NCBI GenBank assembly: GCA_017608305.1
Contig: JAFCGC010000003.1
Location: forward strand, 1 to 59,906
Direction of reading: 5' to 3'
DNA length: 59,906 nt
Source: Candidatus Pacearchaeota archaeon
GTDB taxonomy: Archaea; Nanobdellota; Nanobdellia; Pacearchaeales; GW2011-AR1
The position numbers and the translations under genes are program-made. The notes beneath the pieces are model-generated. The model worked only from the letters and a program-made list of their open reading frames with translations. It was not told the DNA's origin and did not search any database. Below, piece after piece: positions 2,805 through 52,056 of this stretch; position 1 is the stretch's first letter, and every line of letters begins with the position of its first letter.

Positions 2805-3623
2805 TTAGTTGGGACCAATGCTTCTAAAAAAATCAACTTGGGTATTATCAGCATCCATTGGGCAATTACTGCATAAGGGGTAAAGTTTTTTGCCACCTTT
2901 TTTTTGTAAATCTTTTACCATCTTCATATGTTTTTTTGAGAACCAAATATCCTTAATAGATTTATTAGAAATATTTCCTAAATTAAATTCATTTTTCATA
3001 TCTTCACAGCAAAAAGCAACGTTTCCATCATAATGGATAATAAGACGTTTAATAGGTTCTCCACATACTTTTTTAGATATAGCCTCCATTTTCTTTTTTG
3101 GATACAACAATAACTTGGTTATGCCATGTCTTGGAAATCTTTTTTCAATACAACTAAAACCTACTTTTGCTCCCTTAAGTTCTTTTCTCCAAAATTTAAT
3201 TTCTTTATCTCTTTCTCTTGTTGTTTTATAATCATACAATCCAATTAAGATACTATCAAAATATTTTACTGCCTGTTTTCTAAGGGTTTTATTTTTCTTT
3301 AAAATATCTCCGTTAGTATTGATATAAGGAACCATTCCTCTTTTTCTTGCTTCTTTTGCAAATTTAATTAATCTTTTATCTAAAAAAGCTTCACTTAGAT
3401 GATGAAAAGTAATTCTTCCCTTAAAGCCTAATTTTTCTAATTGATTAAAAATATCTATTACCTTGCTTGTGGGTAATTTTTTTATGATCGGCTTACCATT
3501 TTTATCCTTTCTGTTTCCAGACCTATCTCTTTTTCTTGGACAAAAATCACAATCACGATTGCAATTGGAATTTAACTCCAACATCACTCTTTGGAATAAT
3601 GGAAACTCTTTTTTTAAACTCAT
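2805..3623 (-). CDS. radical SAM protein with C-terminal Cys cluster (SPASM/twitch-like)
   Basis: CNRDCDFCP is CX3CX2C near the N-terminus. C-terminal cysteines: FCCEDM ... CSNCP. Confidence 0.75.
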   Translation of the reverse strand: MSLKKEFPLFQRVMLELNSNCNRDCDFCPRKRDRSGNRKDKNGKPIIKKLPTSKVIDIFNQLEKLGFKGRITFHHLSEAFLDKRLIKFAKEARKRGMVPYINTNGDILKKNKTLRKQAVKYFDSILIGLYDYKTTRERDKEIKFWRKELKGAKVGFSCIEKRFPRHGITKLLLYPKKKMEAISKKVCGEPIKRLIIHYDGNVAFCCEDMKNEFNLGNISNKSIKDIWFSKKHMKMVKDLQKKGGKKLYPLCSNCPMDADNTQVDFFRSIGPN

Positions 3624-3786: not shown

Positions 3787-3799
3787 TCGGCGTGGGCGT
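3787..3799 (+). repeat. GC-rich intergenic 13-mer, copy C
   Basis: Exact copy in the spacer between the radical SAM start and the toxin gene end. Confidence 0.8.
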
Positions 3800-3843: not shown

Positions 3844-4092
3844 TTATTGTTTCTTTTTATGATATAAATCCATTACATAGATTTTATTTTCATTTTTATT
3901 ATAAACATAAGATAGTCTAAATGGTTTAAGATATAATTCTCTTGTTCCCCTTCTATTGTGCATCATAGGTTTACCTGCTTCAGAATTGCTTTCTATTTTT
4001 TTAAGTTGGTTAATAATTCTTTTTTTAATAATGTCTTCTTTTAGTTTTGAAAAAGTATTTTGAAATTTTTTTCCAAATATGAATTCTACCAT
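3844..4092 (-). CDS. RelE/ParE-family toxin
   Basis: 82 aa. C-terminal ...GTRELYLKPFRLSYVY..NKIYVMDLYHKK is typical of RelE/ParE. It overlaps the upstream antitoxin gene by 7 nt. Confidence 0.7.
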   Translation of the reverse strand: MVEFIFGKKFQNTFSKLKEDIIKKRIINQLKKIESNSEAGKPMMHNRRGTRELYLKPFRLSYVYNKNENKIYVMDLYHKKKQ

Positions 4093-4355
4093 TTCATCAT
4101 TTCTTCTTCAAGGTTTTCAGAATTAACTTTAATAAATTCTCCAGCTTCAATTCTTTTGTATGCTTCTTCAGTTCTTTTAGCAAATTCTAAATCTTCTTCA
4201 ATATTTTTACTAAAATCTTCCATTTTCTTTAAGATAATTTGTCCTCCATTCTTGAAAACAACTAACTTATCTCCTTCTTGTAAATGTTTTCTCATTTCTT
4301 GAGGAATTACAACCTGTCCCTTTGAACTTATCTTAGTTATGCTTATGTCCTCCAT
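4086..4355 (-). CDS. AbrB/SpoVT/MazE-type antitoxin
   Basis: ITKISSKGQVVIPQEMRKHLQEGDKLVV matches the SpoVT-AbrB swapped-hairpin motif. Paired with the RelE-like ORF. Confidence 0.75.
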   Translation of the reverse strand: MEDISITKISSKGQVVIPQEMRKHLQEGDKLVVFKNGGQIILKKMEDFSKNIEEDLEFAKRTEEAYKRIEAGEFIKVNSENLEEEMMKW

Positions 4356-4551: not shown

Positions 4552-5457
4552 ATGGTTACTGAAAAACAAATTAAAGTTAAAGGGAAAGAATATTGGATAT
4601 TGATTCATTCAGTTAGAAAAGGTAAGAAAGTTATGCAAAAGAAAAAATATATTGGTAAATCTCTTCCACCTAAAACGAGATTAGACCAGTTGAAAAAAGA
4701 ATTCTTAAAAGAATTATCTGGAAATAAATACAAATATCTTTCTAAAGAAGATTTAGAAAAAATAGAAGATAAAAAAACAAAATATAAACAAGAATTAAGA
4801 AAACTAAGTAAGATAGAGAAAGAAAAGAAGCTAAATGAATTTATGATAAGATATACTTATGATAGTAGCAAACTTTCTGGGATCAATGTTACATTAAGAC
4901 AAACTTTTTTAATTTTAAAAGAAGGAATAATTCCCCAAGGGTTTAAGAATCTAAGAATAGCTAAAGAACTAGAAAATCATGAAAAAGGTTTTATTGCCAT
5001 TACAAAGTATAAAGGAAAATTTGATATAGCTTTTATTAAAAAATTGCATACAATTCTTTTTTTTGGAATTGATGATAGTATTGCTGGAAAATTAAGAAGC
5101 GATCTAAAAAGAGATGTAAATATTGCTGGAACCACATATGTTCCTCCAAAATGGCAAGAAATTAATAAGGAATTAGATAACTTCTTTAAGTGGTATAAAG
5201 CAAATAACAGAAAATTACACCCCTTGGAATTAACTTCATTAATACATTTGAAATTGATTTCAATACAACCTTTTGTTGATGGAAATAGTAGATTATCTAG
5301 ATTATTAATGAATTGGATTTTATGGAAGAAATCATATCCTTTAATTGATATTCCTATAGAAGATTTAGAAAATTATTATGATGTTCTAGACAAGTATCAA
5401 ATTGAAAAGGATGGAATTCCTTTTGTAAATTACATTAAGAAAAAGTATTTGGGTTAA
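4552..5457 (+). CDS. Fic/DOC-family protein with a non-canonical active-site motif
   Basis: The Fic core region reads QPFVDGNSRLSR where the family motif is HxFx(D/E)GNGRxxR. The surrounding helices look typical. Confidence 0.75.
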   Translation: MVTEKQIKVKGKEYWILIHSVRKGKKVMQKKKYIGKSLPPKTRLDQLKKEFLKELSGNKYKYLSKEDLEKIEDKKTKYKQELRKLSKIEKEKKLNEFMIRYTYDSSKLSGINVTLRQTFLILKEGIIPQGFKNLRIAKELENHEKGFIAITKYKGKFDIAFIKKLHTILFFGIDDSIAGKLRSDLKRDVNIAGTTYVPPKWQEINKELDNFFKWYKANNRKLHPLELTSLIHLKLISIQPFVDGNSRLSRLLMNWILWKKSYPLIDIPIEDLENYYDVLDKYQIEKDGIPFVNYIKKKYLG

Positions 5458-5470
5458 TTGGTGTGGGCGT
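5458..5470 (+). repeat. GC-rich intergenic 13-mer, copy D (TTGGTGTGGGCGT)
   Basis: Two mismatches. Starts directly after the Fic stop codon. Confidence 0.6.
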
Positions 5471-5529
5471 CTGTTGTTAGAAAGTTCAATATAGAAATAC
5501 TTAAATATTGTTAAAATATATCTTTTTCT

Positions 5530-5724
5530 ATGGTGAAAACAATAGATAGAGAATTAGGAAAAACAACAATAGATAAAGTCCGAAAGGAATTAAGTCCTGT
5601 GTCTTTTGCTGAACAATATCTAGAAGAGCCAGTTTATGTGGGTGCTGATGGAGTTAACTATTCGGCAGGACCAACTGTAACAGTGTGTACTTGGAGAGGA
5701 ATTCCAACTATTGATGATTTCTAA
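5530..5724 (+). CDS. candidate graspetide (omega-ester RiPP) precursor peptide
   Basis: 64-aa ORF ending 14 nt before the ATP-grasp gene. Leader segment SPVSFAEQYLEE resembles the PFFARFL-type leader motif. The C-terminal GPTVTVCTWRGIPTIDDF is rich in Thr and Asp. Confidence 0.5.
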   Translation: MVKTIDRELGKTTIDKVRKELSPVSFAEQYLEEPVYVGADGVNYSAGPTVTVCTWRGIPTIDDF

Positions 5725-5738
5725 GTTATAAATCTCAA

Positions 5739-6698
5739 ATGAAAAATATATTGATTTTAACACATAGCGAAGACCCTCATGCAGATTCGGTTTGTAAATA
5801 CTTGTCTGAAAGGGGAATAAATACTTTTAGAGTTGAAACTGAAAGATTATCTGAGAATTATAAATTAACTTTTAACTCAAATTCTCTTACATATTCCATT
5901 AGTAATGGTGGTGAAGAAATACAAATAGATGATTCTTGGAATATTTGGAATAGAAGGGTTATGAATCCAGATGTTAGAAAGGGTTTGCCAAGAAATATAA
6001 CTGATATTATTTTTGACGAATCAGAAAAAGCTTGGGATGGTTTGCTTATGTCACATAAAGGAAAAGTTGTGAATAGACCCCAAAACCATTTATATGCTAA
6101 TAATAAAATAGATCAAATGAAGTTTGTTTCAAGGTTTGACAGTTCTGTTTTAATTCCAGATACTTTGGTTACAAATGATCCTAAGAAAGTTAGAGAATTT
6201 TATGATAAACACAAAGGGAATATTTGTTTTAAACTTCATAAAGGAGCTGTTGTTGAATCTTCTGAAGGACGTAAGACAGTATATACTAACAAAGTAACAA
6301 GAGAACAAATGGCAAATGCAAATCTCATATCTTCTCATCCTTGTTTTTTCCAAGAGTATGTAGAAAAAGATTTTGAAGTGAGGGTGGTTGTAACAGATAG
6401 TGGCCATGAGGCCATAGCAATACATTCACAAAACTCAGAAATTTCAAAAATTGATTACCGAAAATATGATTTTGAAAATGTTCCTTATGAACCTATTGAA
6501 TCTTCTTTAGATGTAAAAAATGTTTGCTCTGAAATGTTAAAATATTATGGGTTGCATTTTGGTGTTTTTGATTTTATTAAATCAAAAGAGGGGAAAGACA
6601 TATTTTTAGAGTTAAATCCAAATGGACAGTGGCTTTGGTTAGAGGAGCAATCAGGGCATGATTTAACTAGTATTGTTGCTAATAATTTATTAGATTAA
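5739..6698 (+). CDS. ATP-grasp peptide macrocyclase (MvdC/MvdD, graspetide-type)
   Basis: N-terminus ILILTHSEDPHADSV, DYRKYD, and C-terminal IFLELNPNGQWLWLEE closely follow my recollection of microviridin-type ATP-grasp ligases (IFLEINPVGEFFWLE). Confidence 0.75.
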   Translation: MKNILILTHSEDPHADSVCKYLSERGINTFRVETERLSENYKLTFNSNSLTYSISNGGEEIQIDDSWNIWNRRVMNPDVRKGLPRNITDIIFDESEKAWDGLLMSHKGKVVNRPQNHLYANNKIDQMKFVSRFDSSVLIPDTLVTNDPKKVREFYDKHKGNICFKLHKGAVVESSEGRKTVYTNKVTREQMANANLISSHPCFFQEYVEKDFEVRVVVTDSGHEAIAIHSQNSEISKIDYRKYDFENVPYEPIESSLDVKNVCSEMLKYYGLHFGVFDFIKSKEGKDIFLELNPNGQWLWLEEQSGHDLTSIVANNLLD

Positions 6699-6699
6699 A

Positions 6700-7329
6700 A
6701 TGTTTAAACAAATAAAAGAGAAAATAAGAGGAAAATCCTTAATTTTATTTGGGGAATTACATGGTACTAAAGAAATTCCCAAATTCATAGAGAAATTTTT
6801 CTCCGAGTTAGCAAAGGAAGAGGAATTTAATATTTGCTTTGAAATTCCAAGAGAATTTCAAGAGAATATAGAAGAATTTTTTAAGATTAGTAAGAAAGAA
6901 GAGAGTGATGGAAGGAATTCCTTAGAATATCTAAATTTAATAAAAAAACTAAATAGTTTAGATAGAAATATTGATATATTTTGTATAGACCCCGAAGGGG
7001 AAACTCAAATAGAAAGAGAAGAAGGTCTAGCAAAAAATATTTTAAAACATGTTAATGAAAAGAAAACCTTTGTAATTCTCGGTGATGTTCATGCATCAAA
7101 AAATAAATTATCTATTGGGGGAACAAAAATAAATCCTATGGGGGCAATATTATCTGAAAAATTAAAAGAAAAAATGTTTAGCATAAGAATTGTTCCTTCA
7201 AGAGGAAAATTCTTTAATTTTGGAGTTAAAGAAATCAAAGAAGGAAGTGAAAAAGATGTTTTTAATGATAATTTTGATTATATTTATAATGTGGGGAAAG
7301 TGAGTGAATGTTCCTTTTTAAACAAATAA
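6700..7329 (+). CDS. ChaN/Tiki/erythromycin-esterase-superfamily-like protein
   Basis: LILFGELHGTKE (GExH), CFEIP (Glu) and FVILGDVHA (His) have the spacing seen in that superfamily. Starts 2 nt after the ATP-grasp stop. Confidence 0.4.
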   Translation: MFKQIKEKIRGKSLILFGELHGTKEIPKFIEKFFSELAKEEEFNICFEIPREFQENIEEFFKISKKEESDGRNSLEYLNLIKKLNSLDRNIDIFCIDPEGETQIEREEGLAKNILKHVNEKKTFVILGDVHASKNKLSIGGTKINPMGAILSEKLKEKMFSIRIVPSRGKFFNFGVKEIKEGSEKDVFNDNFDYIYNVGKVSECSFLNK

Positions 7330-7359: not shown

Positions 7360-7372
7360 TCGGCGTGGGCGT
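7360..7372 (+). repeat. GC-rich intergenic 13-mer, copy E
   Basis: Exact copy 31 nt after the 6700..7329 stop. Preceded by hairpin GTATCA-CTTC-TGATAC (7341-7356). Confidence 0.8.
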
Positions 7373-7445: not shown

Positions 7446-8228
7446 ATGGTGATGTATTCACACTCAAAATTATCTACTTTTGAACAATGCAGTCTTAAAT
7501 ACAAATACAAGTATGTAGACAAAATCAAAGTTCTTGGAAAATCTGTTGAAGCTTTATTGGGTTTTGCTGTTCATGATGTCTTAGAATATTTATACACACA
7601 AGTAAAAAACAACAAAATTCCTGAGTTAGACGAGATAATCATGATTTATTCAAATACTTGGAAAGATAACTATAATGAAAATATAGTAATAGTAAAAGAT
7701 GACTTAACAGAAAAAGATTATTTTAACAAAGGGGTTCAATTTTTAATTGACTACTACATGAAACACAAACCTTTTACTGACAATACTCTTGAAACAGAAA
7801 AAAGAATCAATATTGTTCTTGATAAACTAAACAACATTAACTTAATAGGCTATATAGATCGATTAGTCCACAATAAAGAAAAAGATGAATATGAAATTCA
7901 TGATTATAAAACAAGTAATTCTATGCCATCTCAACAAGAATTAGATCAAGACAGACAATTAGCTCTTTACTCAATTGCGATAAAAGAAGCTTTTGGTCAT
8001 GACAAACCTGTTATTCTTGTGTGGCATTATTTAGCTCACGGAATAAAAGTCACATCTAGCAGAACAAATTCCCAACTCCTAGATTTAAAAAACCAAACTA
8101 TAGAGCTAATAAAAAAAATAGAATCAACAACAATTTTTCCTCATAATAAATCTATTTTATGTAATTGGTGTGAATATAAAACAATGTGTTCTGCTTGGAA
8201 CACAGAATATAAATACAAAAACCATTAA
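7446..8228 (+). CDS. PD-(D/E)XK nuclease, Cas4/RecB-like with Fe-S cysteines
   Basis: N-terminal Cys (EQCSLKYKY), IGYIDRL...HDYKT (D..D/E-x-K core) and C-terminal CNWCEYKTMC (CX2CX5C), as in Cas4/AddB nuclease domains. Confidence 0.75.
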   Translation: MVMYSHSKLSTFEQCSLKYKYKYVDKIKVLGKSVEALLGFAVHDVLEYLYTQVKNNKIPELDEIIMIYSNTWKDNYNENIVIVKDDLTEKDYFNKGVQFLIDYYMKHKPFTDNTLETEKRINIVLDKLNNINLIGYIDRLVHNKEKDEYEIHDYKTSNSMPSQQELDQDRQLALYSIAIKEAFGHDKPVILVWHYLAHGIKVTSSRTNSQLLDLKNQTIELIKKIESTTIFPHNKSILCNWCEYKTMCSAWNTEYKYKNH

Positions 8229-8331: not shown

Positions 8332-8994
8332 TTATTGTCCATTATCTTGTACTTTGATTAGGTCGCTCACATAATCTCCTTGCTGAAGCTTGACAATTCT
8401 CACTCCTTGAGCAGCCCTCCCCATTATCCTTATGTTCTTTAAAGAAGTCCTAATAACAATACCTTTTGCAGTTGTAATAATTATTCCATCATTTTCATTT
8501 ACAGCAACAGTATTCACAACATCTCCTGTTTTTTCAGTAACTTTAAGATTAATAACTCCTTTTCCTGCCCTCGCTGTTTTCCTATAATCCTTAACCGCAG
8601 TTCTTTTTCCATAACCTTTTTTTGTAATTGTTATAATAGCATGTGTAGCTAAAATCTCTAGACTCACAACCCTATCATCTTTATCTAATTTAATTCCAGT
8701 AACACCATAACTAGCTCTTCCCATTGAACGAACATTTTCTTCTTTAAACCTAATTGCTTTACCTTTTTTAGTGGCAAGAGAAACTTCTTGACCTTTTTTA
8801 ACCAATTCAACACCAATAAGACTATCAGAACCATCACTAGGAAGATTAATTGCCTTAACTCCAGAAGCTCTTGGTTTAGAAAAATTACTCAAAGAAATTT
8901 TCTTTACAATTCCCTTTCTAGTTGCCATAAATAAATCATCTGTAAATTGATTTACAGAAATAACATTTGTAACTTTTTCATTTTTAAGATTCAA
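8332..8994 (-). CDS. gyrA: DNA gyrase subunit A, C-terminal beta-pinwheel fragment
   Basis: Repeated blades (TRKGIVKK, TKKGKAIRF, TKKGYGKRT, TAKGIVIRT). Separated from the N-terminal ORF by a frame change at C6 9014-9019. Confidence 0.85.
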   Translation of the reverse strand: MNLKNEKVTNVISVNQFTDDLFMATRKGIVKKISLSNFSKPRASGVKAINLPSDGSDSLIGVELVKKGQEVSLATKKGKAIRFKEENVRSMGRASYGVTGIKLDKDDRVVSLEILATHAIITITKKGYGKRTAVKDYRKTARAGKGVINLKVTEKTGDVVNTVAVNENDGIIITTAKGIVIRTSLKNIRIMGRAAQGVRIVKLQQGDYVSDLIKVQDNGQ

Positions 8995-9002
8995 TAAATT
9001 AA

Positions 9003-10769
9003 TTATTGCCTTACCCCCCTTGTAGTAAAAAACATAAGATAATCATGTGTAGAACAAGTTATTAGTTGTTTTACAAAATCTCCTGTTGCCAAACCACTTC
9101 CAATAACTCCTTTTCCTCCTCTTTTTTGTTCCTTATAGGTTTTAATATCCATTCTTTTACAATAACCTTTATCTGTAATATTTATAACAACTTCTTTTTT
9201 CTGTACAAGATCCTTTTCAGAAATCTCACTTATCCGTTGCAAAACATTTGTCCTTCTTTTGTCTCCATATTTATTTTTAAGTTCATTAACTTCTTTTACA
9301 ATTATTTTTAAAACTTCTCTTACATCTCCAAGAATTTTTTCAAGCATAGTAATTTTTTCTTTCAGATCTCTTTGTTCTTTTTTTAATTTATCTTTTTCTA
9401 AAGAAGTAAGTTGTTGTAGTTTTGTTTCTAAGACAGCTTGAGCTTGTTTTCGAGTTAATTTAAATTTCTTTATCAACCCTTCTAAAGCTTCTGTTATGCC
9501 TTTAGATTTTTTAATTAAAGTTATAACACTATCAATATTTTCAAGAGCAATTAAAAGACCCTCGACAATTTCTAATCTATCTTTAGCTTTTTTCAGTTCA
9601 AATTTCGACCTATTAACAACTATTTTTTTCCTATATTTTACATACTGTTCAACAACATCTTTTAGAGTCAAAATTTTTGGTTGCCCATTAACTAAAGCCA
9701 AAAAATTCACATTAAAAAAATCCTGTAGTCTGGTGTATTTATACAAAGAATTAATAATAAACTTTGGGTTGGCCCCTCGCTTTAATTCTAAAACAATTCT
9801 AATCTTACCCTTAGAACTCTCATCACGAAGATCAGAAACATCCCTTATTCTCCTTTTCTGAATCAAATCAGCTATTTGAGTTATAAGAGTTGTTTTATTT
9901 AACATATAAGGAATTTCTGTAATTACAATTGCTTCTTTTTTCTTAATAATCTCTGAAGTTGTTCTTCCTCTAAGAGTCAATCTTCCTCTTCCTGTTTTAT
10001 ATAGCTCAAGCATATCTCCTTGAACCATTCCTCCTGTAGGAAAGTCAGGACCTTCAACAATTCCACATAGTTTTTCAATATTAATATCTGGTTTTTTAAT
10101 ATACGCAACAATTGCATCACATACTTCTGTTAAATTATGAGGAGGAATATTTGTAGCCATACCAACAGCAATTCCTGTTGCACCATTAAGCATCAAAGCA
10201 GGAAGTTTTCCAGGAAGCAATTCAGGTTCTTTCAAAGAATTATCAAAATTAGGGGCAAACTTAACAGTTTCTTTCTCAATATCTTGTAATAATTCTGTAG
10301 AAATTTGCATTAATTTAGCCTCAGTATATCTATAAGCAGCAGGAGGATCTCCATCAATCGATCCAAAATTTCCTTGTCCAAAAACAAGAGGATATCTTAA
10401 AGAAAAATTTTGTGCCATTCTTACTAAAGCGTCATAAACAGCGCTATCTCCATGGGGGTGAAACTTACCAATAACATCTCCAACAATTCTAGCGCTTTTT
10501 TTAGTCTGTGTTCCTGGTTTTAATCCCATTTGGTTCATAGCATATAAAATTCTCCTCTGCACAGGTTTAAGACCATCCTCAATTGAAGGAATAGCCCTAG
10601 AAACAATTACACTCATAGCATAATCTAAATATGCTTTTTTCATCTCGCTAGAAACTTCAGTATTAACTACTCCTTTTTCTTCTTGCTTTCGTTCGATGTC
10701 TTCAGCGGACAAGACATGAGGCTTTCCCTCAGAATCTTTTTCTTCATTTGTTTTTTTCTCTGGTGTCAT
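9003..10769 (-). CDS. gyrA: DNA gyrase subunit A, N-terminal part (breakage-reunion domain plus GyrA box)
   Basis: [18 protein letters not shown], active-site region [10 protein letters not shown], and GyrA box QKRGGKG. Ends ...FFTTRGVRQ*. Confidence 0.9.
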
Positions 10770-18111: not shown

Positions 18112-21100
18112 TTAAATGCTTTCCTTTATTTTTATTATTTTCTCCTTTTTATCAACAATCATTCTACTTTTCAAGGCACTTCTTTTTAATTTTATTCTTC
18201 TATAAGAATAATAAGATATTCCTGTAAAAAAAGCAAAAACTGTTGCTATAGCAAGATACCTATATAATTTATTCTCAACTACTTCTCTTGTCAAACCCCT
18301 TGTTGGTTGCTCTATAGCTTCTCTACAAGCATTAATTGCCTCTTCTGCCTTTTGATTTGCCATCTCAGTATTTCCTTCTCTTGCATATTGTTTAGCCTCC
18401 TCAATAAGCTCTTTTAATTCTAAACACTCTGGATTTTCAACAATAAATTCCTCTATAAATAATAATTTTTCTTGTATTTTATCTCCTTCTTGAATTGTCA
18501 AATAAATTTTTCCCCAATCATGGTATTTTGGACTAGTCACACTAGCATTAATTGTTATTTCAAAGGTTCCAAGATCATCTGTATCTATATCTGCTGTTAA
18601 AGTCACAGCTTCTGAATTTCCAACTCCTAAACTAGAAAAATAAGTTTTATCAAATGAAAGGATAATATCATTCCTAAGTTCACCATCTTTAGCCACACTT
18701 CCTGATAAATTAATTCCAAAAAGACTAATCTTTCCATCATTTTGCAAAGTAATTGGCAATACTATCTGATCTTTTTTAAATGCTGAAACAGGATCAGGCA
18801 TAATTATTTTTAAAGACACTGGTTGAAGAGTTGTTCCTCCACCACCACTTGGAGTAACAGTAACAGTCTCAGGTTCTGTAAACTTAACTAAAAAATCATT
18901 ACTAGTAACACTTGTTAAGATTGAATTGTCTGACGAATTTATATCAGAAGCAGTTATATTTAACATTTCAGTAACAGCAATTATGGCAGATAAAGTCAAA
19001 AGCCAATCAGAAGAAACACTCGAAGTAATATCTGTAGGTGAAGAATTACTTGATATTGTAAAATTAACTGTTTGATTATATTTAGCATCTGTATAATCTA
19101 TATCTGAAAAATATTGAGTCAGATCTATTTCTATATCACTGTTATAAGTTGCTTGTTTGTATCCAATATACCCCCTAAATGCAACAGGAGAATTGTTATG
19201 AGTTATATTTGAATTCCAATTTATAGTATAATTAAAATCAGTTGCATTTGCAAGATCACTAGTAGCAGGATAAATTAATAAACTTAAATTCTCAAACAGA
19301 CCATAAGTCTCGTCAGTAAAATTAGGAGTAAAAGCCCAGGTTAAATTAGTATTATTTCCATAAGAACTCGCATTATACTTGTAAATCTCATTTAAATAAA
19401 ATGCATAAGTTAAATTATCATTTACAGAATGATTTGCTCTAAATATTAAACTAGAAGTTACATTTTCTTGCAGACTAAAATTATAAGTAGGTAAAGGAAA
19501 AGTTATGTTAGGAGTTCCATAAACCAAAACCCAAAAATCCTGAGAATCTATACTTCCATCAGTATCATTAACAGTTATATTTATATTATATTTTCCTGCC
19601 TGCGTATCATTAAAAGTAATATCTAATTCTCCTGAAGTTGTATTAAAAATAGACTCATTATTTCCTATAAAATCAGTTCCACTAAGAAAAGCATAATCAT
19701 AGGTTAAATTTCCAGAACTATCATCTCCATCTTCTGTATCTGAAGCATTAATATTATAATAAAGAGTCCTATTTACTCCAGAAGATTGATTTGTTAAATT
19801 CATTAAAACAGGATTATGGCTTATTTCAATAATAGTAAGATTAAAAGATAAAAACACAGAAGCATTAGAGATATCTGTAACATTTATACTAACATTATAA
19901 CCTCCTATATCTGATTTTCCAGGAGTAAATGAGGCAGTATATCGAGTTCTATTAGCCCCAGGAGTAGGAAAATTACCATCTTTAGTAAAACTAAACAAAC
20001 TTGAATTAGGACCCTCAATAGTCAAATTAACTGTCAAAGTCTCATTATAATAACTCTTTTGACTTGCATTCACTTTCAAATCTTCATCTTGAACCCAAAG
20101 AGTAATAATGGTGTAATTATCTTCTGCAGTAGTTATATTTGAATTAGACTCTACAGTAGCATTAACATTCACACTAAGCGGCGTTTCCATCATGGGTTCT
20201 GTATTTATATTTGAAACATTAAATATAAACAAAGTTGTGTTTTCAAGTCCTAGAGAATCATTAGCAGTAACACTAAATTCCCAATAACCTATATCTAGTT
20301 TCCAAGGAGTAAAATCCACCATCCCACCTGAACTTAAATTAAATCCAGGAAATGCTGTTGATGAAGTAAAAGTGAGAACATCCCCAATATCAGTAACATA
20401 CAAATCCCCTGTTAAATTAATTGGGCCAAATTGATCAGTAGTTGCAAGAGTAGAATTAACAGTTAAATCAAAACTATAATTTGTTTGATTCCAAGTAGGA
20501 AATGTATTTGATGAAATAGTTAAATTAAATATAATTGAATAAAAAGCATTCTCACTGTCATTCACAGATAAGTTAACAGTATAATCTCCCACTTGAGTCT
20601 CATTTGGAGTAAATCTTATCTCAGCTGTTGTTTGGTTTGTGGGCACAGTAACATTCAAAACAGGCATACTCAAAATAGTTACTGTAAAATTATCAATAGT
20701 CAAAGCTTGACTTAAATCAGATTGATTAAACAAAGTTGCATTAAAAGTAATTGTTTCATTATATCCTCCAGAAACATCATTTTTATCTGGGATTAATAAA
20801 TCATTATCATAAACAGACAAACTAATTGTTCTTTCTAAATCCATAGAAGTTTGAACATTAGCCACATCAGTGATTTCAGGAGCATCATTAAGCGAACTAT
20901 TTCTTTCAACATAAACAGGAATTTGAACTGTAATATTTTGTCCATAAGTATCATCAAAAACAGTGAAATTAATTGTCCAATTTCCAATCTCTGTTTTTTG
21001 AGGAGTCACATTTATCAAAATCTCTTTTGTAAAATTATCAGAAGTTGTTGTTGAATTAACAAGAAACCAACTCCTATTTAAAACCCCTCCTCCATAATTC

Positions 21101-22029
21101 CTTAAAAGAGCTATACTAGAAATATTCAGAGCATCTTCTTCGCCTTGGGTAGTTAGATTAATATAACAAAAATCTGCAACATTTTCTGTAAAAACTTTAT
21201 TTTCACAATCAGTTATGTTTGCATCTAAACTTGCAAAAACATTAAATCTAACAGCTACAGAATAGATCGTTGTCTGATTTTGTTCATAAGCTGCAGCATC
21301 ACAATAATTATGAGGGCAAGAATAATTTTCACCAAAGTCCATTACAGAAATATTTGCCCAATAAGTACCAACATCATCTTTTGTAGGGGTAAAATTCATA
21401 GCAGCTGAATCATTTGTAAGATCTGTTAGAGTCATGCCTAAAACAAATAAAGAACAATTCTCTCCATCATTTCTTTGAGACCAAGAAGCATGACTACAAT
21501 TATCTATAAAAAAACTTATATTAAAAGTTAAATTAAGATGAGATTCTTGATCTGTTGCATTTAAATAATCATAAAAACTTTGATTCTGAGTCAAATTAAA
21601 GACACTAGACATATTAACAAATTCAGGAGCATCATTTGTTGCATTAACCTCAAAGAAAAAAGTCTCAATATCTCCTGAACCAGTATCATTTTGCACACTC
21701 ATAGTAATATTAAATCTTCCTGTTTCATTATCTTTAGAAGAAGTAAAATTCATAAGTCCTAACACATCATCTGTCAAATTAATCCAATAAATATCACTTG
21801 CAGTATAAGTATCATCTTCAGACCAATTTATAGACAAAACAGTAAAAAGATGTGGAGGCTCAGAAGTTGATAAGTTTGCTGTAAAATTATGTTGATAATC
21901 AGTATCTTCAACCAAAAAATAAGGTCCTCTTGATCCAGTATCAAATTGAGGCTTAGCTAAAACAAATCCAAGTAAAAAGAGAATTGCAAAGATCCCAAGA
22001 TAAATTAAAATATTTTTTCTAGACTTCAT
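18112..22029 (-). CDS. large (1305 aa) surface protein with cadherin/Ig-like repeats and a C-terminal TM anchor
   Basis: Signal peptide. Repeat boundaries of NDAPEF / NDAPEI / NTEPM / SHNPV type. Dozens of N-x-S/T sequons. C-terminal TM followed by basic residues. Confidence 0.8.
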   Translation of the reverse strand: MKSRKNILIYLGIFAILFLLGFVLAKPQFDTGSRGPYFLVEDTDYQHNFTANLSTSEPPHLFTVLSINWSEDDTYTASDIYWINLTDDVLGLMNFTSSKDNETGRFNITMSVQNDTGSGDIETFFFEVNATNDAPEFVNMSSVFNLTQNQSFYDYLNATDQESHLNLTFNISFFIDNCSHASWSQRNDGENCSLFVLGMTLTDLTNDSAAMNFTPTKDDVGTYWANISVMDFGENYSCPHNYCDAAAYEQNQTTIYSVAVRFNVFASLDANITDCENKVFTENVADFCYINLTTQGEEDALNISSIALLRNYGGGVLNRSWFLVNSTTTSDNFTKEILINVTPQKTEIGNWTINFTVFDDTYGQNITVQIPVYVERNSSLNDAPEITDVANVQTSMDLERTISLSVYDNDLLIPDKNDVSGGYNETITFNATLFNQSDLSQALTIDNFTVTILSMPVLNVTVPTNQTTAEIRFTPNETQVGDYTVNLSVNDSENAFYSIIFNLTISSNTFPTWNQTNYSFDLTVNSTLATTDQFGPINLTGDLYVTDIGDVLTFTSSTAFPGFNLSSGGMVDFTPWKLDIGYWEFSVTANDSLGLENTTLFIFNVSNINTEPMMETPLSVNVNATVESNSNITTAEDNYTIITLWVQDEDLKVNASQKSYYNETLTVNLTIEGPNSSLFSFTKDGNFPTPGANRTRYTASFTPGKSDIGGYNVSINVTDISNASVFLSFNLTIIEISHNPVLMNLTNQSSGVNRTLYYNINASDTEDGDDSSGNLTYDYAFLSGTDFIGNNESIFNTTSGELDITFNDTQAGKYNINITVNDTDGSIDSQDFWVLVYGTPNITFPLPTYNFSLQENVTSSLIFRANHSVNDNLTYAFYLNEIYKYNASSYGNNTNLTWAFTPNFTDETYGLFENLSLLIYPATSDLANATDFNYTINWNSNITHNNSPVAFRGYIGYKQATYNSDIEIDLTQYFSDIDYTDAKYNQTVNFTISSNSSPTDITSSVSSDWLLTLSAIIAVTEMLNITASDINSSDNSILTSVTSNDFLVKFTEPETVTVTPSGGGGTTLQPVSLKIIMPDPVSAFKKDQIVLPITLQNDGKISLFGINLSGSVAKDGELRNDIILSFDKTYFSSLGVGNSEAVTLTADIDTDDLGTFEITINASVTSPKYHDWGKIYLTIQEGDKIQEKLLFIEEFIVENPECLELKELIEEAKQYAREGNTEMANQKAEEAINACREAIEQPTRGLTREVVENKLYRYLAIATVFAFFTGISYYSYRRIKLKRSALKSRMIVDKKEKIIKIKESI

Positions 22030-29007: not shown

Positions 29008-32000
29008 TTATTCATTTAAACTTGCTGTAAAAGTTAGTGTAGATGATCTAGATCCTGCGCCTTCTGTAGCTCCTGGAACAGTAAGCTCTAAATCAACATA
29101 TGCTTCATCTTCAGCAGCATTCCATTTAAATTCAACTAAAAATGTCTCTTCAGTAGGATCAATTGGGATATTTGCCCAACTAGTAGTACCTGAAGTAAAA
29201 CTACCTGTATCTTTTTCTTGAACCTTATATCTATAATCACTAGAAGCACTTGATCGAGTATTCCATAATTGTGTTGCTTTTATATCTACATTTGCAATAC
29301 AATTTCCATCATTTTCTAATGTGAATGGATTGGGGGGGGTAGGATCTGTGGCTTTGGTTTCATCTGGTTGCATTGTTCCAAAATCAATAGTTGGGTCTGG
29401 ATTTGAAGGAGGATCTGTAATTGAAATACTTACTTCTGATTGAATCTTTAAATTCCATTTTTCACTCCAATCCCCCCACCCAACACTATCTCTAGCTCTT
29501 ACTCTCCATGTATAATAATAAGTATTATCAAATAAATATTGCAAAAAATCAGGATCAGGAAGTGTATAACTTTCATCAACAGGAGAGCCAGTAATTATTG
29601 AAATTAGTTTATAATCGTCTGGAGAACAAACAGAATCAGAACAAGAAATCTCTAATTCATATTCTTGAATATCTGCTTCTCCATCAGCATCAACACCATC
29701 CCAAACAAAAGTTGGGGTCCTATCTATATTAGAAGAATCATTAGCAGGAGAAACCAAAGTCACTGTTGGGAGAGAATTTAGCAAAACAAAAACTTCTCCA
29801 CTAGATATTTTTTCCTCATAAGCTCCTTTATGACAAGTAATATTATATTTGTAAAGCCCACCTTTTTCAAAACTCCGATTATATTCCCATAAATTAGAAG
29901 TTAAATTCCAAGACAATCTTCCAGAAACAGAATCATTAAAATCTATTTTACATCTAGAGTCCTGAATCACATCAAGATAACCTTCATTAGGGTTATTAGA
30001 AACATAAGACACAAAGCCAATATCTGCAACACCATCATAATTAAAGTCACCAGCATCTAATTCTGGATGTTTTCCAAAACTAGGTCTAGGACCAAAAGTT
30101 CCACTTGGATAAGACTTTAAACTATCATAAATTAAAACAATTCCCCCATTACTTTCAATAATAAAGGCTTGCATGTGACTTTGAGAATTATTATTCATCG
30201 CGATAAATTCCATTTCAGTGTCATCATCAATATCAATTCCTAATAAATCAATTGAACTAAAACCCTTAGAAACATTCCAAATATAATTTAAACTAGAATC
30301 ATAAACAAATATTTTAGCAGAAAAAAAACTTGTAACAACATATTTGTCTCCATTATTATAAATATCAGAAATTATAATTTCAGTGGGATTATCTCCAGGT
30401 TCAAAATCCCAATGAAGACTATCTTTTAAACCACCTGTAAAATTGTAAACAAAAAGATATTGTGAATTTCCTGATAAAATCTCCATTTCACCATCATTAT
30501 CTAAATCACCTACAGCAAGAGGAACTTTCCCTTTATTTTTCCAAAGATATTCCCCAGAACTATTTAATGCAGTAACAGAAGTATTTCCCTCGCTTGAAAA
30601 AACCACATCATCTTTTCCATCATTATTAAGATCTTCCACCACAATCTTATCAATCCCTGTAATACCAACGCAATTATAACTCCAATCCTGAATCCAAATA
30701 TTATTTTCTCCGGTATATGCTAAAATATTTTTATCTCCAGATCCCTGTACAATAACAAAATCATCATCTAACCCATCTCCATCCAAATCTCCAATAGAAC
30801 TAATTGCTAATTCGGAAAAAGTTCCTTCTTGCCAAATATTTTGTCCTAAATTATTTATAACAGAAATACTAGCAGTGCCTTCAAGAAATTCACCTTCGTA
30901 ATTATCACTATCTAAATCTCCAACAAAAATACTTTGCCCAGAACCTGTGTTAGGAGAATTAAATACATTTACTCCAAGAGCATTAAAAAATTGATTATGG
31001 GCCTCATTTATTCCAATAATTAATCCATCTTTTCTTCCTGTTTTAGATAAATCAATTGCCCGAATAGTTCTAACTTTCCCAATATTCCCTGTATCCCACA
31101 AAAAAATCCCTAAATCACCAATATCAACATTTGAATCTGTTTCAGAATAATTTGCAGTAAATAAAACTTGGGTTTTAGAATTTTGATTATCTTCATCTGT
31201 AATAGATAAAGAAGTTGAATAATTTCTAATTTTCCTAGTTTGGCTTTGATACCAGCCAGTAGATTCTACCCCATCATTTGCATTAATCCTACAATAAAAA
31301 TCATCATCATAATGTGTGTAAGTATAACTTAAATTAGAAAAATATAATGTAGATTGTGTATAATCTGAAATTGTTTGATTTAAAAAATTACTTCCATTAC
31401 TATACCACTTAACTTCTACATTTAAAAGAGGGGAATCAAAATCAGTAACATTAAAACCACATTGTAAATGATCTTTTGTATAAGGTAAAGAAGGCAACAA
31501 ATTAATACTTTGATATTCAGGAGCAGAATTTATTATTTCAAGTGTATTACTTAAAACAGTTTCACCATCTCCCAAGGCATCATTTGGTGTTAAAGCAACA
31601 CTCCAATTATCTCCTAATTTAGTTTCAAAAGAAGAAAGATTTTCAAAATGTTTGTCTGCCATTCCAGAGTCATAAAGAATTTTTATTTGTTCTTCACTTA
31701 AACTACGATTGAAAATTCTAACTCCATCAATTGTCCCAGAAAAATAATTATTCCATCCATCTTGTGCAATTAATAAAGGAGAATTAGAACTTTGAATTTG
31801 ATTTAGAAGAGCTGTATCTTTTAAATCTCCATTTAAATAAATTAAAGCAGAAGTTCCATTATAAACCCCAACAACATGATACCATTGCCCTGTTGTTAAA
31901 TCTTGATCAAGATTAACCCAAACACCTGGAATAACATTATCCTGATTAAATTGGATGCCTAACCTATCACTAGGGCCCCCCTCACTAAGCCCCCCAAACC

Positions 32001-35000
32001 TTAATTGCCAAGTCCAATCAGGATTTAATGCTTTTGCTAAAACACCAAAATTATCTCCTGTTTCATGCGCCATGCTTGTTTTAATCCAAGATTCAAATGT
32101 AATCTCATCAGTAATATCTAAACTACTATCACTGCCACAATTGATATAATCATCTCCATCAAATTTATATGCCCCCCCAACTTTTTCACTTATCTCCCAA
32201 ACAGGATTTCCATAAATTGTGGCATTATTTTGGTAAGTGGAATAATCTCTAATAATATCAAAAGTTAAACTTGTTTCTTCTGTATCAAAAGGCATATTTA
32301 AAACAGCAATTGATTCACCTCCAAGTCTCCAGTCAGTGATGGTTATGGGTGTGCTATCTGCATCAATTATTTCATAATAAACAGATAAATTTTCCAAACT
32401 AGAATTATGTCCTAAAGAAGAATTTAAAACCACATTTGAAATTACAGGATAAGTATTTACATCAACTGTTCTTATCTCTGTCTGATTTAAATTTCCAGCT
32501 AAGTCCTGAACATAAGCAACATATTCATATTCTCCGGAATCCAAACTTGTAAAATTCCTATAAAGCCTATTAAGTCCTGCATTATACGAAGCATCAATTT
32601 CTTCTTCACTCAAGGCCCTATTCCAAACTCTTAATTCATCTATTGTTCCATTAAAAAAATGTGTTGATCCTTCTTGAGTAGCACCAATTGTAAAATTATT
32701 CTCCTTATCAGGATCAAAAAAAGGACCTGATTGAATAAAGGAATCTGTGCTTTCTAAAACCCCATTAAAATAAAGTTTATATGAAGTTCCTGCATCCATT
32801 ACCACTAAAACATGTGTCCAAACACCAATTGGTACAGAAGAGAAAACAAAAGTATCTCCATTCTCTACATAAGACCTAATCTCATCTCCAACCATATAAA
32901 GCAAAAAATCCCCATCTTCAATCCCCCCCCCATCATAAACATCAAAAATATAACACTCTGAACAAGTACCTTTAGGTTTTATCCAAGCACTTACAGTAAA
33001 ATTTTCAAAATCAGTTAAACTGTCTGATTTCTCAACAAGAACATAATCATCAATACCATCAAAATTTAATCCAGGTCCAAACTTTCCTGCAGAAGTCCAG
33101 ACAGGAGGGGAGTCTCCATCTTGATTGCTTGGATTAAAGTCATAAAGAGTTCCATTATTACTCCAACTAGAACTATCATAAGCAGTTGTTCCTGTAAATT
33201 CATTAAATCTCCACCAACCAACTAAACTTTTATTCCAATCCATAAAAGAGGTCACATCATTGGCATCAGAAACACTTACATTAACATAAACACTATTTCC
33301 CCTAACAAAACTATCATCAGTAAGAGTGGGGGGGACAAATTCAATTAAAGGAGTTATAGTATCTATGCTTATTTTTCTTGTTTCTGTTTGATTAAAGTTC
33401 TCAGATAAATCCTTAAGATAAGCAAAATATTCATAAGTTCCATCACTTAAACTAGTTTTGTTAACATACAAATTCCAAACACTAGAAGCACTTTGTACAA
33501 GACTTGCTCCTGCGTTTTCACCACTCCAATTAATATATGTTGCAGATTCATTTAAATTATCTTCTAAAATAGAAACATTAACATAAATTGAAGTGTAATT
33601 TGTATAAGTATTATTATCAAAAGTTGGAAAAACAAAATTAATTTCAGGGGGAACAACATCTAATAAAATATTAAGAAAAGTACTCTCAGTTAAATTCAAA
33701 GAAACAAAAGTAGTTGAAGGATCTTTTTTAGCTTGAATAGTATAATTAGTTGCAAAAGTTTTTGCGATTTTTGTTTGAGAATATTCCATTAAAATTTCTC
33801 TATCTATTTGACCAAGTGAATTAGTATAACTTGTGAATATTAAATCATTTGTTTTATTCCATACAGAAACTTCCACATTCTCAAGAGAATTTCCTAATTC
33901 ATCTGAAACATTTACCCTAAAATACCATTTTACATCCACTGAACCTAAATTACTCCAACCTCCATCAAAAAACAAAATTTTATTTTCATCAAAAGTTGTA
34001 TTAATTAAATTCAATACACTAGTTTGAGTTGTAGAAACTGTTCGAATATCATAAGAAGTGCTATCTTGAATTAATGAATTAAATACTAAAAGCTTAGCAG
34101 AACTCTGAACTTCAATACCAACCTCATTATCCTTAATTTTACTAGAAGAAATATTGTTATTAGAAGAAGAAACTTGGATTCCTGCAATATTATTCTCAAA
34201 AATAGAAAGATTAGTTAAATTATTATTTTCTGCTGAATCTTTCAAATCTAATCCAACACTAGAATAAGAAAAAATATTATCAAAAATTAAATTATTATCG
34301 CCTGAAATACGCAAACCTAAACCATTATTAGTAAAATTATTATTAGAAACATTGCAATTATCTCCCTCCACTGTTAATGCAATCCCCCCATTATTTGTAA
34401 AATAATTTCCAGAAATCAAAAAATTATTTCCAAAAAAAGTAGGTTGAGCATTATTTGAAAAAACATTGCCAATTATTTTTACATCATCTGCATAAATTTT
34501 AAGCCCAATTTTGAATGAAGTACGATTTCCTGAACAATAACTTAAACTAGATTTATTCATAAAAAAATCAGCTCCATTTTCAACAATAAAAATAAAAGTA
34601 GGATCAGAACCCCCACCATTAGTAATATTGCTCTTAGCTTTGATTGTCATATTTCCTGTGCTTGTAACATTAATTCCAACACCCCCATCATTAGTACCAT
34701 TCATTCTCAAAGTTGAATTTTCTAAAATAAAATCACCTTCAATTGTTAAATTTCCATTTTGCCAAATTGTATTTTTTGAATTTTTAATTGTGAAATTCCC
34801 CTTATTCTCAACTAAAGTGAAATCTTCAACATTTAAGGAAATTGAATCTATTGTCAAATCCCCATCTGAAGTAACGTTTAATGAATTCACCTTTAAATCA
34901 TCATAAGTTTCATCACAAACTAAATCAGTTGTTATTACTAAATCTACATTAGGAAAAGTTGGTTCGCAAGTATTATATTGAATTATAGATTCCCAATCTC

Positions 35001-51268: not shown

Positions 51269-51389
51269 GAGCCTGTAGCTCAGTCTGGTCAGAGCACTGC
51301 TCTTATATGAGTGTGGTTTGTTAAAATCACTTTCTCTTGGAGATCTCTAAGAGAGGCAGGGGTCCACGGTTCAACTCCGTGCAGGCTCA
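51269..51389 (+). tRNA. tRNA-Ile(UAU) with a 46-nt intron at 37/38
   Basis: Hand-folded. Acceptor GAGCCTG/CAGGCTC, D arm GCTC/GAGC, anticodon stem CTGCT/GGCAG, loop C-T-TAT-A, T arm CACGG-TTCAACT-CCGTG, discriminator A. Mature length 75 nt. Confidence 0.8.
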
Positions 51390-51931: not shown

Positions 51932-52056
51932 GCCCCGATAGTTCAGAGGCCAAGAATTCTGCCCTTTCAAGGTAAGATTCTCTGAATCTTCCATTTCTCC
52001 TCTCCTCTGAGGATTGAAGAAAGGCAGTGACCCGGGTTCGAATCCCGGTCGGGGCG
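51932..52056 (+). tRNA. tRNA-Glu(UUC) with an about 52-nt intron at 37/38
   Basis: Hand-folded. Acceptor GCCCCGA/TCGGGGC, D arm GTTC/GAAT, anticodon stem CTGCC/GGCAG, loop C-T-TTC-A, T arm CCGGG-TTCGAAT-CCCGG. Confidence 0.85.

Follow-up and report, generated by a model that had tools for sequence, protein, structure and literature searches.

A candidate three-gene graspetide cassette with a Tiki/ChaN/erythromycin-esterase-like partner protein in DPANN archaea

Can a run of three short genes in an archaeal genome constitute a complete pathway for a graspetide, that is, a peptide macrocyclised through its side chains by an ATP-grasp ligase? The question is raised by positions 5530-7329 of contig JAFCGC010000003.1 from a Candidatus Pacearchaeota archaeon, which belong to a 59.9-kb stretch with about 29% G+C (henceforth the window, whose reading frames were checked in all six frames). 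A sequence-only reading had proposed at this position a precursor, an ATP-grasp and a Tiki/ChaN-like gene, and the three open reading frames (ORFs) are present there with the peptide strings and spacings that it quoted. On the forward strand these are a graspetide precursor gene of 64 codons plus stop (5530-5724), recognised by its homologues, conserved motifs and purifying selection; an ATP-grasp graspetide synthetase of 319 residues with an MvdD-type pre-ATP-grasp domain (5739-6698), recognised by Pfam, NCBIfam and Protein Data Bank (PDB) profile matches; and a minimal member of the Tiki/ChaN/erythromycin-esterase superfamily of 209 residues (6700-7329), recognised by its fold and invariant residues and a candidate leader peptidase or esterase. 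The TAA of the precursor is separated from the ATG of the ligase at 5739 by 14 nt (gttataaatctcaa), and a single base lies between the ligase TAA, which ends at 6698, and the ATG of the third gene at 6700. We favour, with a probability of about 0.75 that includes the mechanism proposed below, the reading that these three genes form a graspetide cassette, complete in itself and horizontally mobile, of a DPANN archaeon.

The sequence-only reading depended on whether the ligase sides with RiPP (ribosomally synthesised and post-translationally modified peptide) cyclases or with RimK and GshB, and the profile comparisons place it among the RiPP macrocyclases with RimK far weaker. The protein, which contains ILILTHSEDPHADSV, IDYRKYD and IFLELNPNGQWLWLEE, matches the MvdD pre-ATP-grasp domain of Pfam (PF21068, e-value 1.7e-14, 54.4 bits against a cut-off of 27), and over its full length recovers the NCBIfam models for MvdC (204.7 bits, 1.8e-60), GRASP_SAV_5884 (182.6 bits, 1e-53) and MvdD (161.6 bits, 2.5e-47). 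The grasp-with-SPASM model TIGR04192 gives 83.7 bits against a cut-off of 230, and the primary-metabolism models give still lower scores: 37.7 bits for RimK (1.4e-9; cut-off 143.4) and about 23 bits for GshB (about 1e-5; cut-offs 272-299). When the ligase and a profile of 35 family sequences were compared with the PDB, all matches at E<=1e-5 were graspetide ligases, namely MdnB (5ig8), AMdnB (7m4s), CdnC (7mgv), MdnC (5ig9), an MvdD-like protein (9bou) and PsnB (7drm), with profile e-values from 1e-59 to 2e-12, and no RimK or GshB structure was recovered at that threshold with the family profile. The alignment of the family shows 44 invariant columns, including the block F289-L-E-x-N-P-x-G-Q-W (FLELNPNGQW), which contains the E-x-N pair typical of the Mg/ATP sites of ATP-grasp enzymes.

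A search of 5.8 billion protein clusters returned 206 ligase homologues, the named ones of which come from Pace-, Nano- and Woesearchaeota; some of them carry the JGI label 'glutathione synthase/RimK-type ligase-like'. About 30 homologous loci (designated here by L numbers) could be assembled, nearly all from metagenome-assembled genomes (MAGs) of Pace-, Woese- and Nanoarchaeota. The ligases of the family form a single clade in a neighbour-joining tree, and those from its genome and metagenome loci are 42-82% identical to that of the window, the next loci reaching at most 36%. Carriage of the family by viruses was considered and rejected, viral contigs holding no family member and just relatives that are at most 31% identical. 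Three Hainich groundwater contigs labelled Patescibacteria (L111-L113) have ligases nested deep within the Pacearchaeota clade, and their string CAATAAAGTTTAAATAGTTT, spanning the transcription factor B recognition element and TATA box, recurs in the Pacearchaeota loci L003 and L006. The assignment of the three contigs to bacteria thus probably reflects a binning error and not cross-domain transfer. At the outer edge, the metagenome contigs L032 and L042 encode ligases just 32-33% identical to that of the window, still beside a Tiki/Ere-like partner; in the accompanying precursors the leader reads PFA..[YF] and a DD lies close to the C-terminal end. This suggests that the pairing of ligase and partner predates the DPANN family or is exchanged more readily than that family.

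The 64-residue product of the first gene reads MVKTIDRELGKTTIDKVRKELSPVSFAEQYLEEPVYVGADGVNYSAGPTVTVCTWRGIPTIDDF. We compiled 28 precursors of the family. Wherever the upstream sequence of a family locus extends far enough, a small ORF was found immediately 5' of the ligase, with its motifs kept; this was a check named by the sequence-only reading. All 28 precursors contain a relaxed leader motif, F-[ASGCV]-E-[QMIR]-[YF]-[LMIF]-E-[EKNR] usually followed by Pro (with Y in the first position in L237), the consensus being F-[ASG]-E-[QM]-[YF]-[LM]-E-[EKRN]-P. In the window protein it appears as SFAEQYLEEP (S25-P34; 5602-5631, forward strand), and, as had been proposed, its hydrophobic F-A-x-x-[YF]-L motif is akin to the PFFARFL recognition helix of microviridin leaders. 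The leader and core expressions have a single match each among all six translated frames of the window, both within the ORF at 5530-5724, the chance expectation in shuffled translations being 0.18 for the core and 0 for the leader. Over the leader and core blocks the mean proportion of nonsynonymous differences (pN) is 0.278 and that of synonymous differences (pS) 0.723 (pN/pS 0.385), with pN below pS in all 253 of 253 pairs, and the invariant Thr/Ser, Cys and Asp positions are encoded by several synonymous codons. These patterns of substitution mark the small ORF as a real gene under purifying selection. Gene calling has largely passed over it: the 5.8 billion clusters hold just 2 homologous precursor entries beyond that of the window, and 25 more were obtained by reading loci directly. 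Because gene callers miss most of these precursors, graspetide mining limited to bacterial or RefSeq data misses archaeal families.

The precursor genes also have expression signals of their own. A strict archaeal TATA box lies 17-39 nt upstream of the precursor ATG in 14 of 26 family loci (background 1.7%), a figure that rises to 17 of 26 when the variant CTTAAATA, found at the same place in the window, L007 and L025, is counted; another 8 of the 26 have a GGAGG-type Shine-Dalgarno sequence rather than a TATA box (background 2%). In the window the putative box, TTAAATAT at 5501-5508 on the forward strand, is centred about 26 nt before the precursor ATG, matching the position of the family TATA, and from this spacing the precursor mRNA is probably leaderless and made from its own archaeal promoter. 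A scan with a bacterial sigma-70 and terminator model, which is not applicable to an archaeon, gave counts at chance level.

Which residues could be crosslinked is indicated by the conservation of the core peptide, P48-F64 (PTVTVCTWRGIPTIDDF; 5671-5721, forward strand), which carries the family signature with T51, C53 and T54 as candidate donors and D62 and D63 as candidate acceptors. The signature [ST]-x-[CS]-[TSYG]-x7-D-D is present at invariant spacing in all precursors but one (27 of 28). Position 51 (window numbering) is Ser or Thr throughout; position 53 is Cys in 25 precursors and Ser in three (L024, L111 and L237), with different codon routes to Ser, TCT versus AGC, in L024 and L111, which were checked at the codon level; and at position 54, 24 precursors have Thr or Ser, two have Tyr and two have Gly. 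Positions 51 and 53 are accordingly the sole donor-type positions kept in all 28. The sequence-only reading had counted four Thr hydroxyls and two Asp carboxylates; all six are present in the tail of the window peptide and the two Asp are conserved, but Thr49 and Thr60 vary among precursors, the latter position being often Leu, Val or Ala. Position 56 is mostly Arg and sometimes Lys, which leaves no conserved Lys nucleophile in the core, and the links are therefore expected to be esters (or a thioester) and not amides. Most precursors stop one residue past the DD, usually with an aromatic residue; in six (L008, L009, L020, L025, L234 and L237) a further 4-18 residues follow, so the conserved element is the side chains and not the C-terminus. 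From this pattern we predict one or two rings closed onto Asp62/Asp63, from Thr51 and from either Thr54 or Cys53. The precursor of L008 (3681-3986, 101 residues) is unusual in that the leader motif appears twice, as TFSEIFLEEQ and as FFSEQFFERP, ahead of one core, which is then followed by an extra acidic tail, …IPTIDDPDLDDI.

The restriction of position 53 to Cys and Ser favours the notion that Cys53 might be a genuine donor, giving a native side-chain Cys-Asp thioester (thiolactone) next to a Thr51-Asp ester, which we nevertheless hold to be unlikely. A comparable exchange is known from the staphylococcal autoinducing peptides, which contain a Cys thiolactone that is replaced by a Ser lactone in Staphylococcus intermedius, and the change of Cys53 to Ser in 3 of 28 precursors mirrors it. 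This is an analogy and no more, as the enzymology of AgrB is unrelated: it closes the ring onto the C-terminal carboxylate, whereas the ring in the window peptide would use an Asp side chain. In the graspetide literature searched, thioesters are mentioned only as 'non-native' products of engineered substrates, which weighs against a native one. Were it real, this would be the first native thioester-linked graspetide, archaeal and processed by a Tiki/Ere-type hydrolase, and its reactive link could act as an acyl donor toward a target.

The third protein accompanies the ligase closely. Of the 31 family loci that could be assessed with a profile of 92 homologues, about 27 have a partner adjoining the ligase; in four of them (L009, L020, L025 and L056) it lies convergently on the opposite strand. 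Members of the Tiki/ChaN/Ere superfamily are recognised by two GxxH motifs and a conserved Glu, and the window partner has GELHG (18-22), E48 and GDVH (128-131); G18, E19, H21, G22, T23, E25, P27, E48, G71, Y77, G128 and H131 are invariant in 51 partner sequences. It scores 25.9 bits with the ChaN model of the Tiki superfamily (PF04187), under the gathering cut-off of 27.7; the same model is matched by 47 of the 51 relatives at E<=0.01, with several distant relatives exceeding the cut-off, and one member of the family matches Erythro_esteras of Pfam. A search of PDB sequences with the partner profile gave no significant match, and it was comparison of folds alone that worked. The AlphaFold2 model (predicted local distance difference test score 93.4, predicted TM-score 0.91) retrieved with Foldseek, as best PDB matches, the Ere-like Bacillus cereus proteins 3b55, 2qgm and 2rad (e-values 5e-7 to 7e-6, query-normalised TM-scores 0.71-0.77; for Bcr135/136 the figures are 5e-7 and 0.73-0.77), followed by EreC (6xcq), HopBA1 (5t09), domains of large bacterial toxins and ChaN (2g5g). 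Together with the invariant residues these matches back the earlier Tiki/ChaN/Ere assignment, and the model supports a minimal erythromycin-esterase/ChaN/Tiki domain of about 200 residues. The protein differs from the Ere enzymes in lacking the large helical lid at its 209 residues (targets of about 400 residues, target-normalised TM-score about 0.4). No membrane anchor was found in it, nor by eye a signal peptide, its residues 14-19 being the first strand of the fold. The core family comprises 58 clusters (50% identity) at E<=1e-30 and 2,177 at E<=1e-3. Fusions of ligase and partner genes were looked for among the 150 top relatives of the partner profile and rejected: none contains an ATP-grasp domain, and one is fused to a Peptidase_S41 domain.

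We propose that these parts would work together as follows. The 64-residue precursor, transcribed from its own archaeal promoter, would dock on the ATP-grasp ligase through SFAEQYLEEP, its version of the hydrophobic motif by which graspetide leaders are recognised. At the expense of ATP the ligase would phosphorylate Asp62 and Asp63 on their side-chain carboxylates, which Thr51, plus Thr54 and/or Cys53, would then attack, yielding one or two macrocycles with a loss of 18 Da per ring. The cytoplasmic Tiki/Ere/ChaN-fold protein, with its E-H-E-H catalytic-type constellation intact, would then cleave off the leader. By analogy this is most likely its function, because the three genes travel together through unrelated contexts without any other protease, and because Tiki/TraB-family proteins have been proposed for leader removal in loci of the candidate phyla radiation (CPR) (PMC8939145). 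The peptide could possibly be a protease inhibitor or a signalling-type molecule; more speculatively, the conserved [WF]-[RK]-G loop would suit the P1 site of a trypsin-like protease.

Several points weigh against this reading. The chemistry proposed for the cassette product, like the topology of its crosslinks, the activity of the partner and the role of the peptide, is what we infer from the genes, the product itself being unobserved. The nearest characterised relatives of the ligase are, by a marginal difference, of the amide-forming MdnB/AMdnB type, yet no Lys of the core is conserved. The ligase also stays below the curated equivalog cut-offs for MvdC (TIGR04185, 204.7 against 425) and MvdD (TIGR04184, 161.6 against 475), which indicates that it represents a distinct graspetide subfamily and not a microviridin enzyme; of the earlier label of microviridin-type macrocyclase, the full-length homology and the pre-ATP-grasp domain stand. 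No conserved leader cleavage site is evident among the precursors between the leader motif and the core, and four loci (L016, L019, L021 and L237) have no partner nearby, while the closest solved structures to the modelled partner are those of esterases and not peptidases. The precursor has no signal peptide and the cassette no exporter, so that an extracellular role of the peptide finds no support from either the precursor or its partner; the earlier remark that neither a GCN5-related N-acetyltransferase (GNAT) nor an ATP-binding cassette (ABC) exporter accompanies the locus agrees with what we find within about 3 kb of it. Finally, the taxonomic labels of the family depend on the binning of MAGs.

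One alternative makes the partner a macrolactone or thiolactone esterase instead of the leader peptidase. Acting in self-immunity, proofreading or turnover, it would reopen the side-chain (thio)ester ring(s), much as a macrolactone is opened by erythromycin esterases. Its best structural matches, Bcr135/136 and EreC, and the member that matches Erythro_esteras point this way, the predicted product has ester rings, and a cytoplasmic protein would be in the right place for immunity or turnover. The catalytic-type residues are however common to the whole superfamily and do not discriminate, the cassette offers no other candidate for a leader peptidase, a translationally coupled pair that makes and breaks the same ring is less parsimonious, and Makarova et al. 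take the related CPR proteins to be peptidases (PMC8939145); we therefore consider this unlikely. An improbable variant, in our estimation, is that the partner is non-catalytic and aids the stability or activity of the ligase in the manner of a chaperone. Graspetide synthetases that depend on a partner protein do have a precedent in MirC, which serves the rosaritide synthetase (PMC13097080), and the tight co-occurrence and 1-nt gene spacing would fit; against it, the invariance of E19, H21, E48 and H131 points to catalysis, there are loci with no partner nearby or with the partner on the opposite strand (four of each), and no fusions of ligase and partner were found among the distant relatives.

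A more radical objection is that the ATP-grasp protein is a primary-metabolism or RimK-like ligase, adding C-terminal amino acids or joining a small metabolite, next to which the small ORF is incidental. Weak matches to RimK, MptN and GshB, the RimK-type annotations at JGI and the termination of most precursors just after the DD could be cited for it, but the RiPP maturase models outscore RimK by 125-165 bits, the PDB comparison is silent on RimK and GshB at 1e-5, and the small ORF is conserved, under selection and equipped with its own expression signals, with six of its homologues extending past the DD; we regard this as highly improbable. A different kind of doubt concerns what the peptide is for: the cassette could belong to an island with defence or toxin-antitoxin functions, in which the peptide would be an intracellular regulator or antiviral effector rather than a secreted product. 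This accords with the neighbours in the window, which include a SoFic-like Fic protein, a Cas4-like nuclease, a HigB/MazE-type pair and a weakly viperin-like radical S-adenosylmethionine (rSAM) protein, with the ParE toxin-antitoxin pair inside the repeat-flanked unit of L111/L112, and with the missing exporter and signal peptide. However, PADLOC has no match for the cassette proteins and the neighbours vary across loci, and we judge such a role to be rather improbable; as it concerns the role alone, it is compatible with the graspetide mechanism.

How, then, does a graspetide cassette of this kind relate to known systems? It resembles the microviridin system (MdnA with MdnB/MvdC and MdnC/MvdD; group 1) in the full-length homology of the ligase, the small precursor upstream, the PFFARFL-akin leader and the Asp acceptors at the C-terminal end of the core. 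It differs in that a single ligase replaces the pair, that GNAT and ABC transporter are lacking, that the host is archaeal and a Tiki/Ere-like partner is present, and that its core TVTVCTWRGIPTIDDF lacks TxKxPSDx(D/E)(D/E) and a conserved Lys, with SFAEQYLEEP as the leader. The thuringinin/plesiocin type, with core motifs TTxxxxEE and TxxTxxT…ExxDxD, likewise uses a single ATP-grasp enzyme, Thr/Ser donors and clustered acidic acceptors, but its core motifs are different and the window precursor has no core repeats. The partner belongs by its fold, two GxxH motifs plus Glu, and weak PF04187 score to the Tiki/TraB-PrgY/ChaN/erythromycin esterase superfamily, whose peptide-processing members include Tiki, acting on Wnt, and PrgY/TraB, acting on pheromones, along with the macrolactone esterases.

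Makarova et al. (2022) catalogued 174 graspetide families and highlighted CPR bacteria, in whose 'branch 2' the ATP-grasp is reported to be co-expressed with a Tiki/TraB-family protein, for which leader cleavage was proposed (PMC8939145). These loci share with ours ultra-small hosts of the episymbiotic type and a partner from the Tiki/TraB superfamily; they differ in being bacterial, in always containing a 'cluster 23' protein and often SPASM or methyltransferase genes, and in that the precursor is there mostly unidentified, in contrast to the clear precursor and three-gene cassette here (PMC8939145). The supplementary table, as far as its listed entries go, places two ATP-grasps of the DPANN archaeon GW2011_AR18 under 'Branch_Thuringinin', with neither precursor nor comment (PMC8939145). 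Carter et al. (2026) derived 43 RODEO groups from 21,584 predicted graspetides, and the sole archaeal group mentioned, group 36 of the Thermoprotei, has a precursor unrelated to that of the window family (PMC13097080). The generalisation that graspetides are essentially bacterial thus holds for the most part, with exceptions in the DPANN ATP-grasps left unannotated in the listed supplement entries (PMC8939145) and in the predicted Thermoprotei group (PMC13097080).

A strikingly similar core is that of RODEO group 27, T-x-T-[VK]-C-T-x6-7-D-G-D as displayed in Fig. S4 (for example GGIGTKTVCTIGANHAKDGD), to be compared with T-V-T-V-C-T-x7-D-D here, Cys included (PMC13097080). Group 27 differs in its leader, which reads …ARxQARxL…GG and contains a double-Gly site, and in its hosts, bacteria of candidate phyla; according to the entries given for it, it consists of just a ligase and a precursor, and 26% of its clusters include NHLM transporters (PMC13097080). 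Group-27-like precursors (T.C[TS]…D.D) were sought in the loci of the bacterial relatives of our family, and none was found. The motifs of the family match none of the supplement entries listed for PMC13097080 and PMC8939145, and PF04187 none of those for PMC13097080, an absence which is no proof; neither did the literature searched contain a description of this DPANN family. The family is therefore undescribed in the searched literature and belongs to a well-known class, to which, being known almost only from bacteria, it adds an archaeal family with implied chemistry of a known kind. For the RiPP field it offers a compact, easily expressed three-gene system with T-x-C-T…DD as a new ring-forming motif, a Cys that may be a native donor, and an uncharacterised Tiki/Ere-type processing enzyme that could be a new leader peptidase or a ring-opening esterase. 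Since DPANN archaea have genomes of about 1 Mb and depend on hosts, a conserved, evidently mobile peptide cassette is also a rare handle on their interactions with hosts, competitors or viruses.

The mobility of the cassette is indicated both in the window and in other genomes, which supports the cassette-like island that had been suspected from the window. A G+C-rich motif of 13 nt, TCGGCGTGGGCGT, occurs in five intergenic copies, all on the forward strand, at 2413-2425, 2715-2727, 3787-3799, 5458-5470 and 7360-7372 (0.36 expected at <=3 mismatches), with its 8-mer core occurring 4 times against an expectation of 0.01, and with no copy elsewhere in the window. The copies at 5458-5470 (TTGGTGTGGGCGT, 2 mismatches to TCGGCGTGGGCGT) and 7360-7372 (TCGGCGTGGGCGT) bracket the graspetide cassette, and the series as a whole separates a small 290-bp module, an rSAM/SPASM gene, a toxin-antitoxin pair plus Fic, and the cassette. 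The motif is missing from 112 of 113 loci, the single match being in an unrelated viral contig, and a 14-mer containing it gives single, scattered and chance-like matches in viral contigs. An integron or attC array was considered and rejected: the single-stranded folds at the five copies are no better than those of shuffles (z from -1.3 to +1.7), and no integrase lies in the stretch from 1 to 8.3 kb of the window, although, as the window starts 2.4 kb upstream of the first copy, one farther away is possible.

In two other genomes, long direct repeats flank the cassette. In L111/L112 repeats of 166 nt with 92% identity (L111 9479-9644 and 12190-12355, equal to L112 3-168 and 2714-2879) enclose all three cassette genes together with a ParE-type toxin-antitoxin pair, and in L010/L023 repeats of 290 nt with 93% identity (L010 125-414 and 2988-3277) flank the cassette. 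Those of L111 encode C-terminal fragments (…FELRDTDKEKPMKFYRAVQN, then stop) related to the end of a neighbouring gene for a 330-residue surface-protein-like product, and look like duplicated 3' ends of a gene, of the attL/attR type that site-specific integration leaves, although no integrase lies inside. A comparable fragment is found beside the cassette of L042 (2226-2426).

The neighbours themselves are not conserved beside the cassette in other loci, except for an orthologue of the Fic protein in L006 (1935-2852, 1e-150, about 1 kb away), and as the flanking genes vary the three genes are to be seen as the conserved unit. In the window these neighbours are the rSAM/SPASM protein of 272 residues (2805-3623, reverse strand), which bears a weak resemblance to prokaryotic viperins and to peptide maturases and occupies a repeat-bounded module of its own, 2 kb away from the graspetide genes; the Gp49/HigB-like and MazE/AbrB-like pair (3844-4355, reverse strand), which shares a module with the SoFic-like Fic protein (4552-5457); and the Cas4-like PD-(D/E)XK nuclease (7446-8228). 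The rSAM/SPASM gene was entertained as a component of the pathway and rejected, its sole relative across the loci being a weak one (L111, 1.7e-7) and its module a separate one.

As far as MAG labels can be trusted, there is good support for a DPANN archaeon as the host, both in what else the window encodes and in homologues from DPANN MAGs. It contains a Kae1 of the archaeal type (TIGR03722, 415.8 bits against a cut-off of 375), Elp3 and gyrase B, and two tRNA genes at 51269-51389 (121 nt) and 51932-52056 (125 nt) with Rfam scores of 54 and 51 bits; these lengths against a model of 71 positions imply that both contain introns, and together with Kae1 and Elp3 they argue for an archaeon. ARAGORN, run with bacterial/linear settings, reported no tRNA in the window. 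Among the remaining ORFs of the window, one of 1,305 residues (18112-22029) and several around it have no NCBIfam match at 1e-10. DNA gyrase subunit A appears to be split on the reverse strand between two ORFs in different frames, a 220-residue C-terminal part at 8332-8994 and a 588-residue N-terminal part at 9003-10769, which could reflect a frameshift, a sequencing error or a truly split gene. A giant ORF of 3,710 residues occupies 29008-40140 on the reverse strand.

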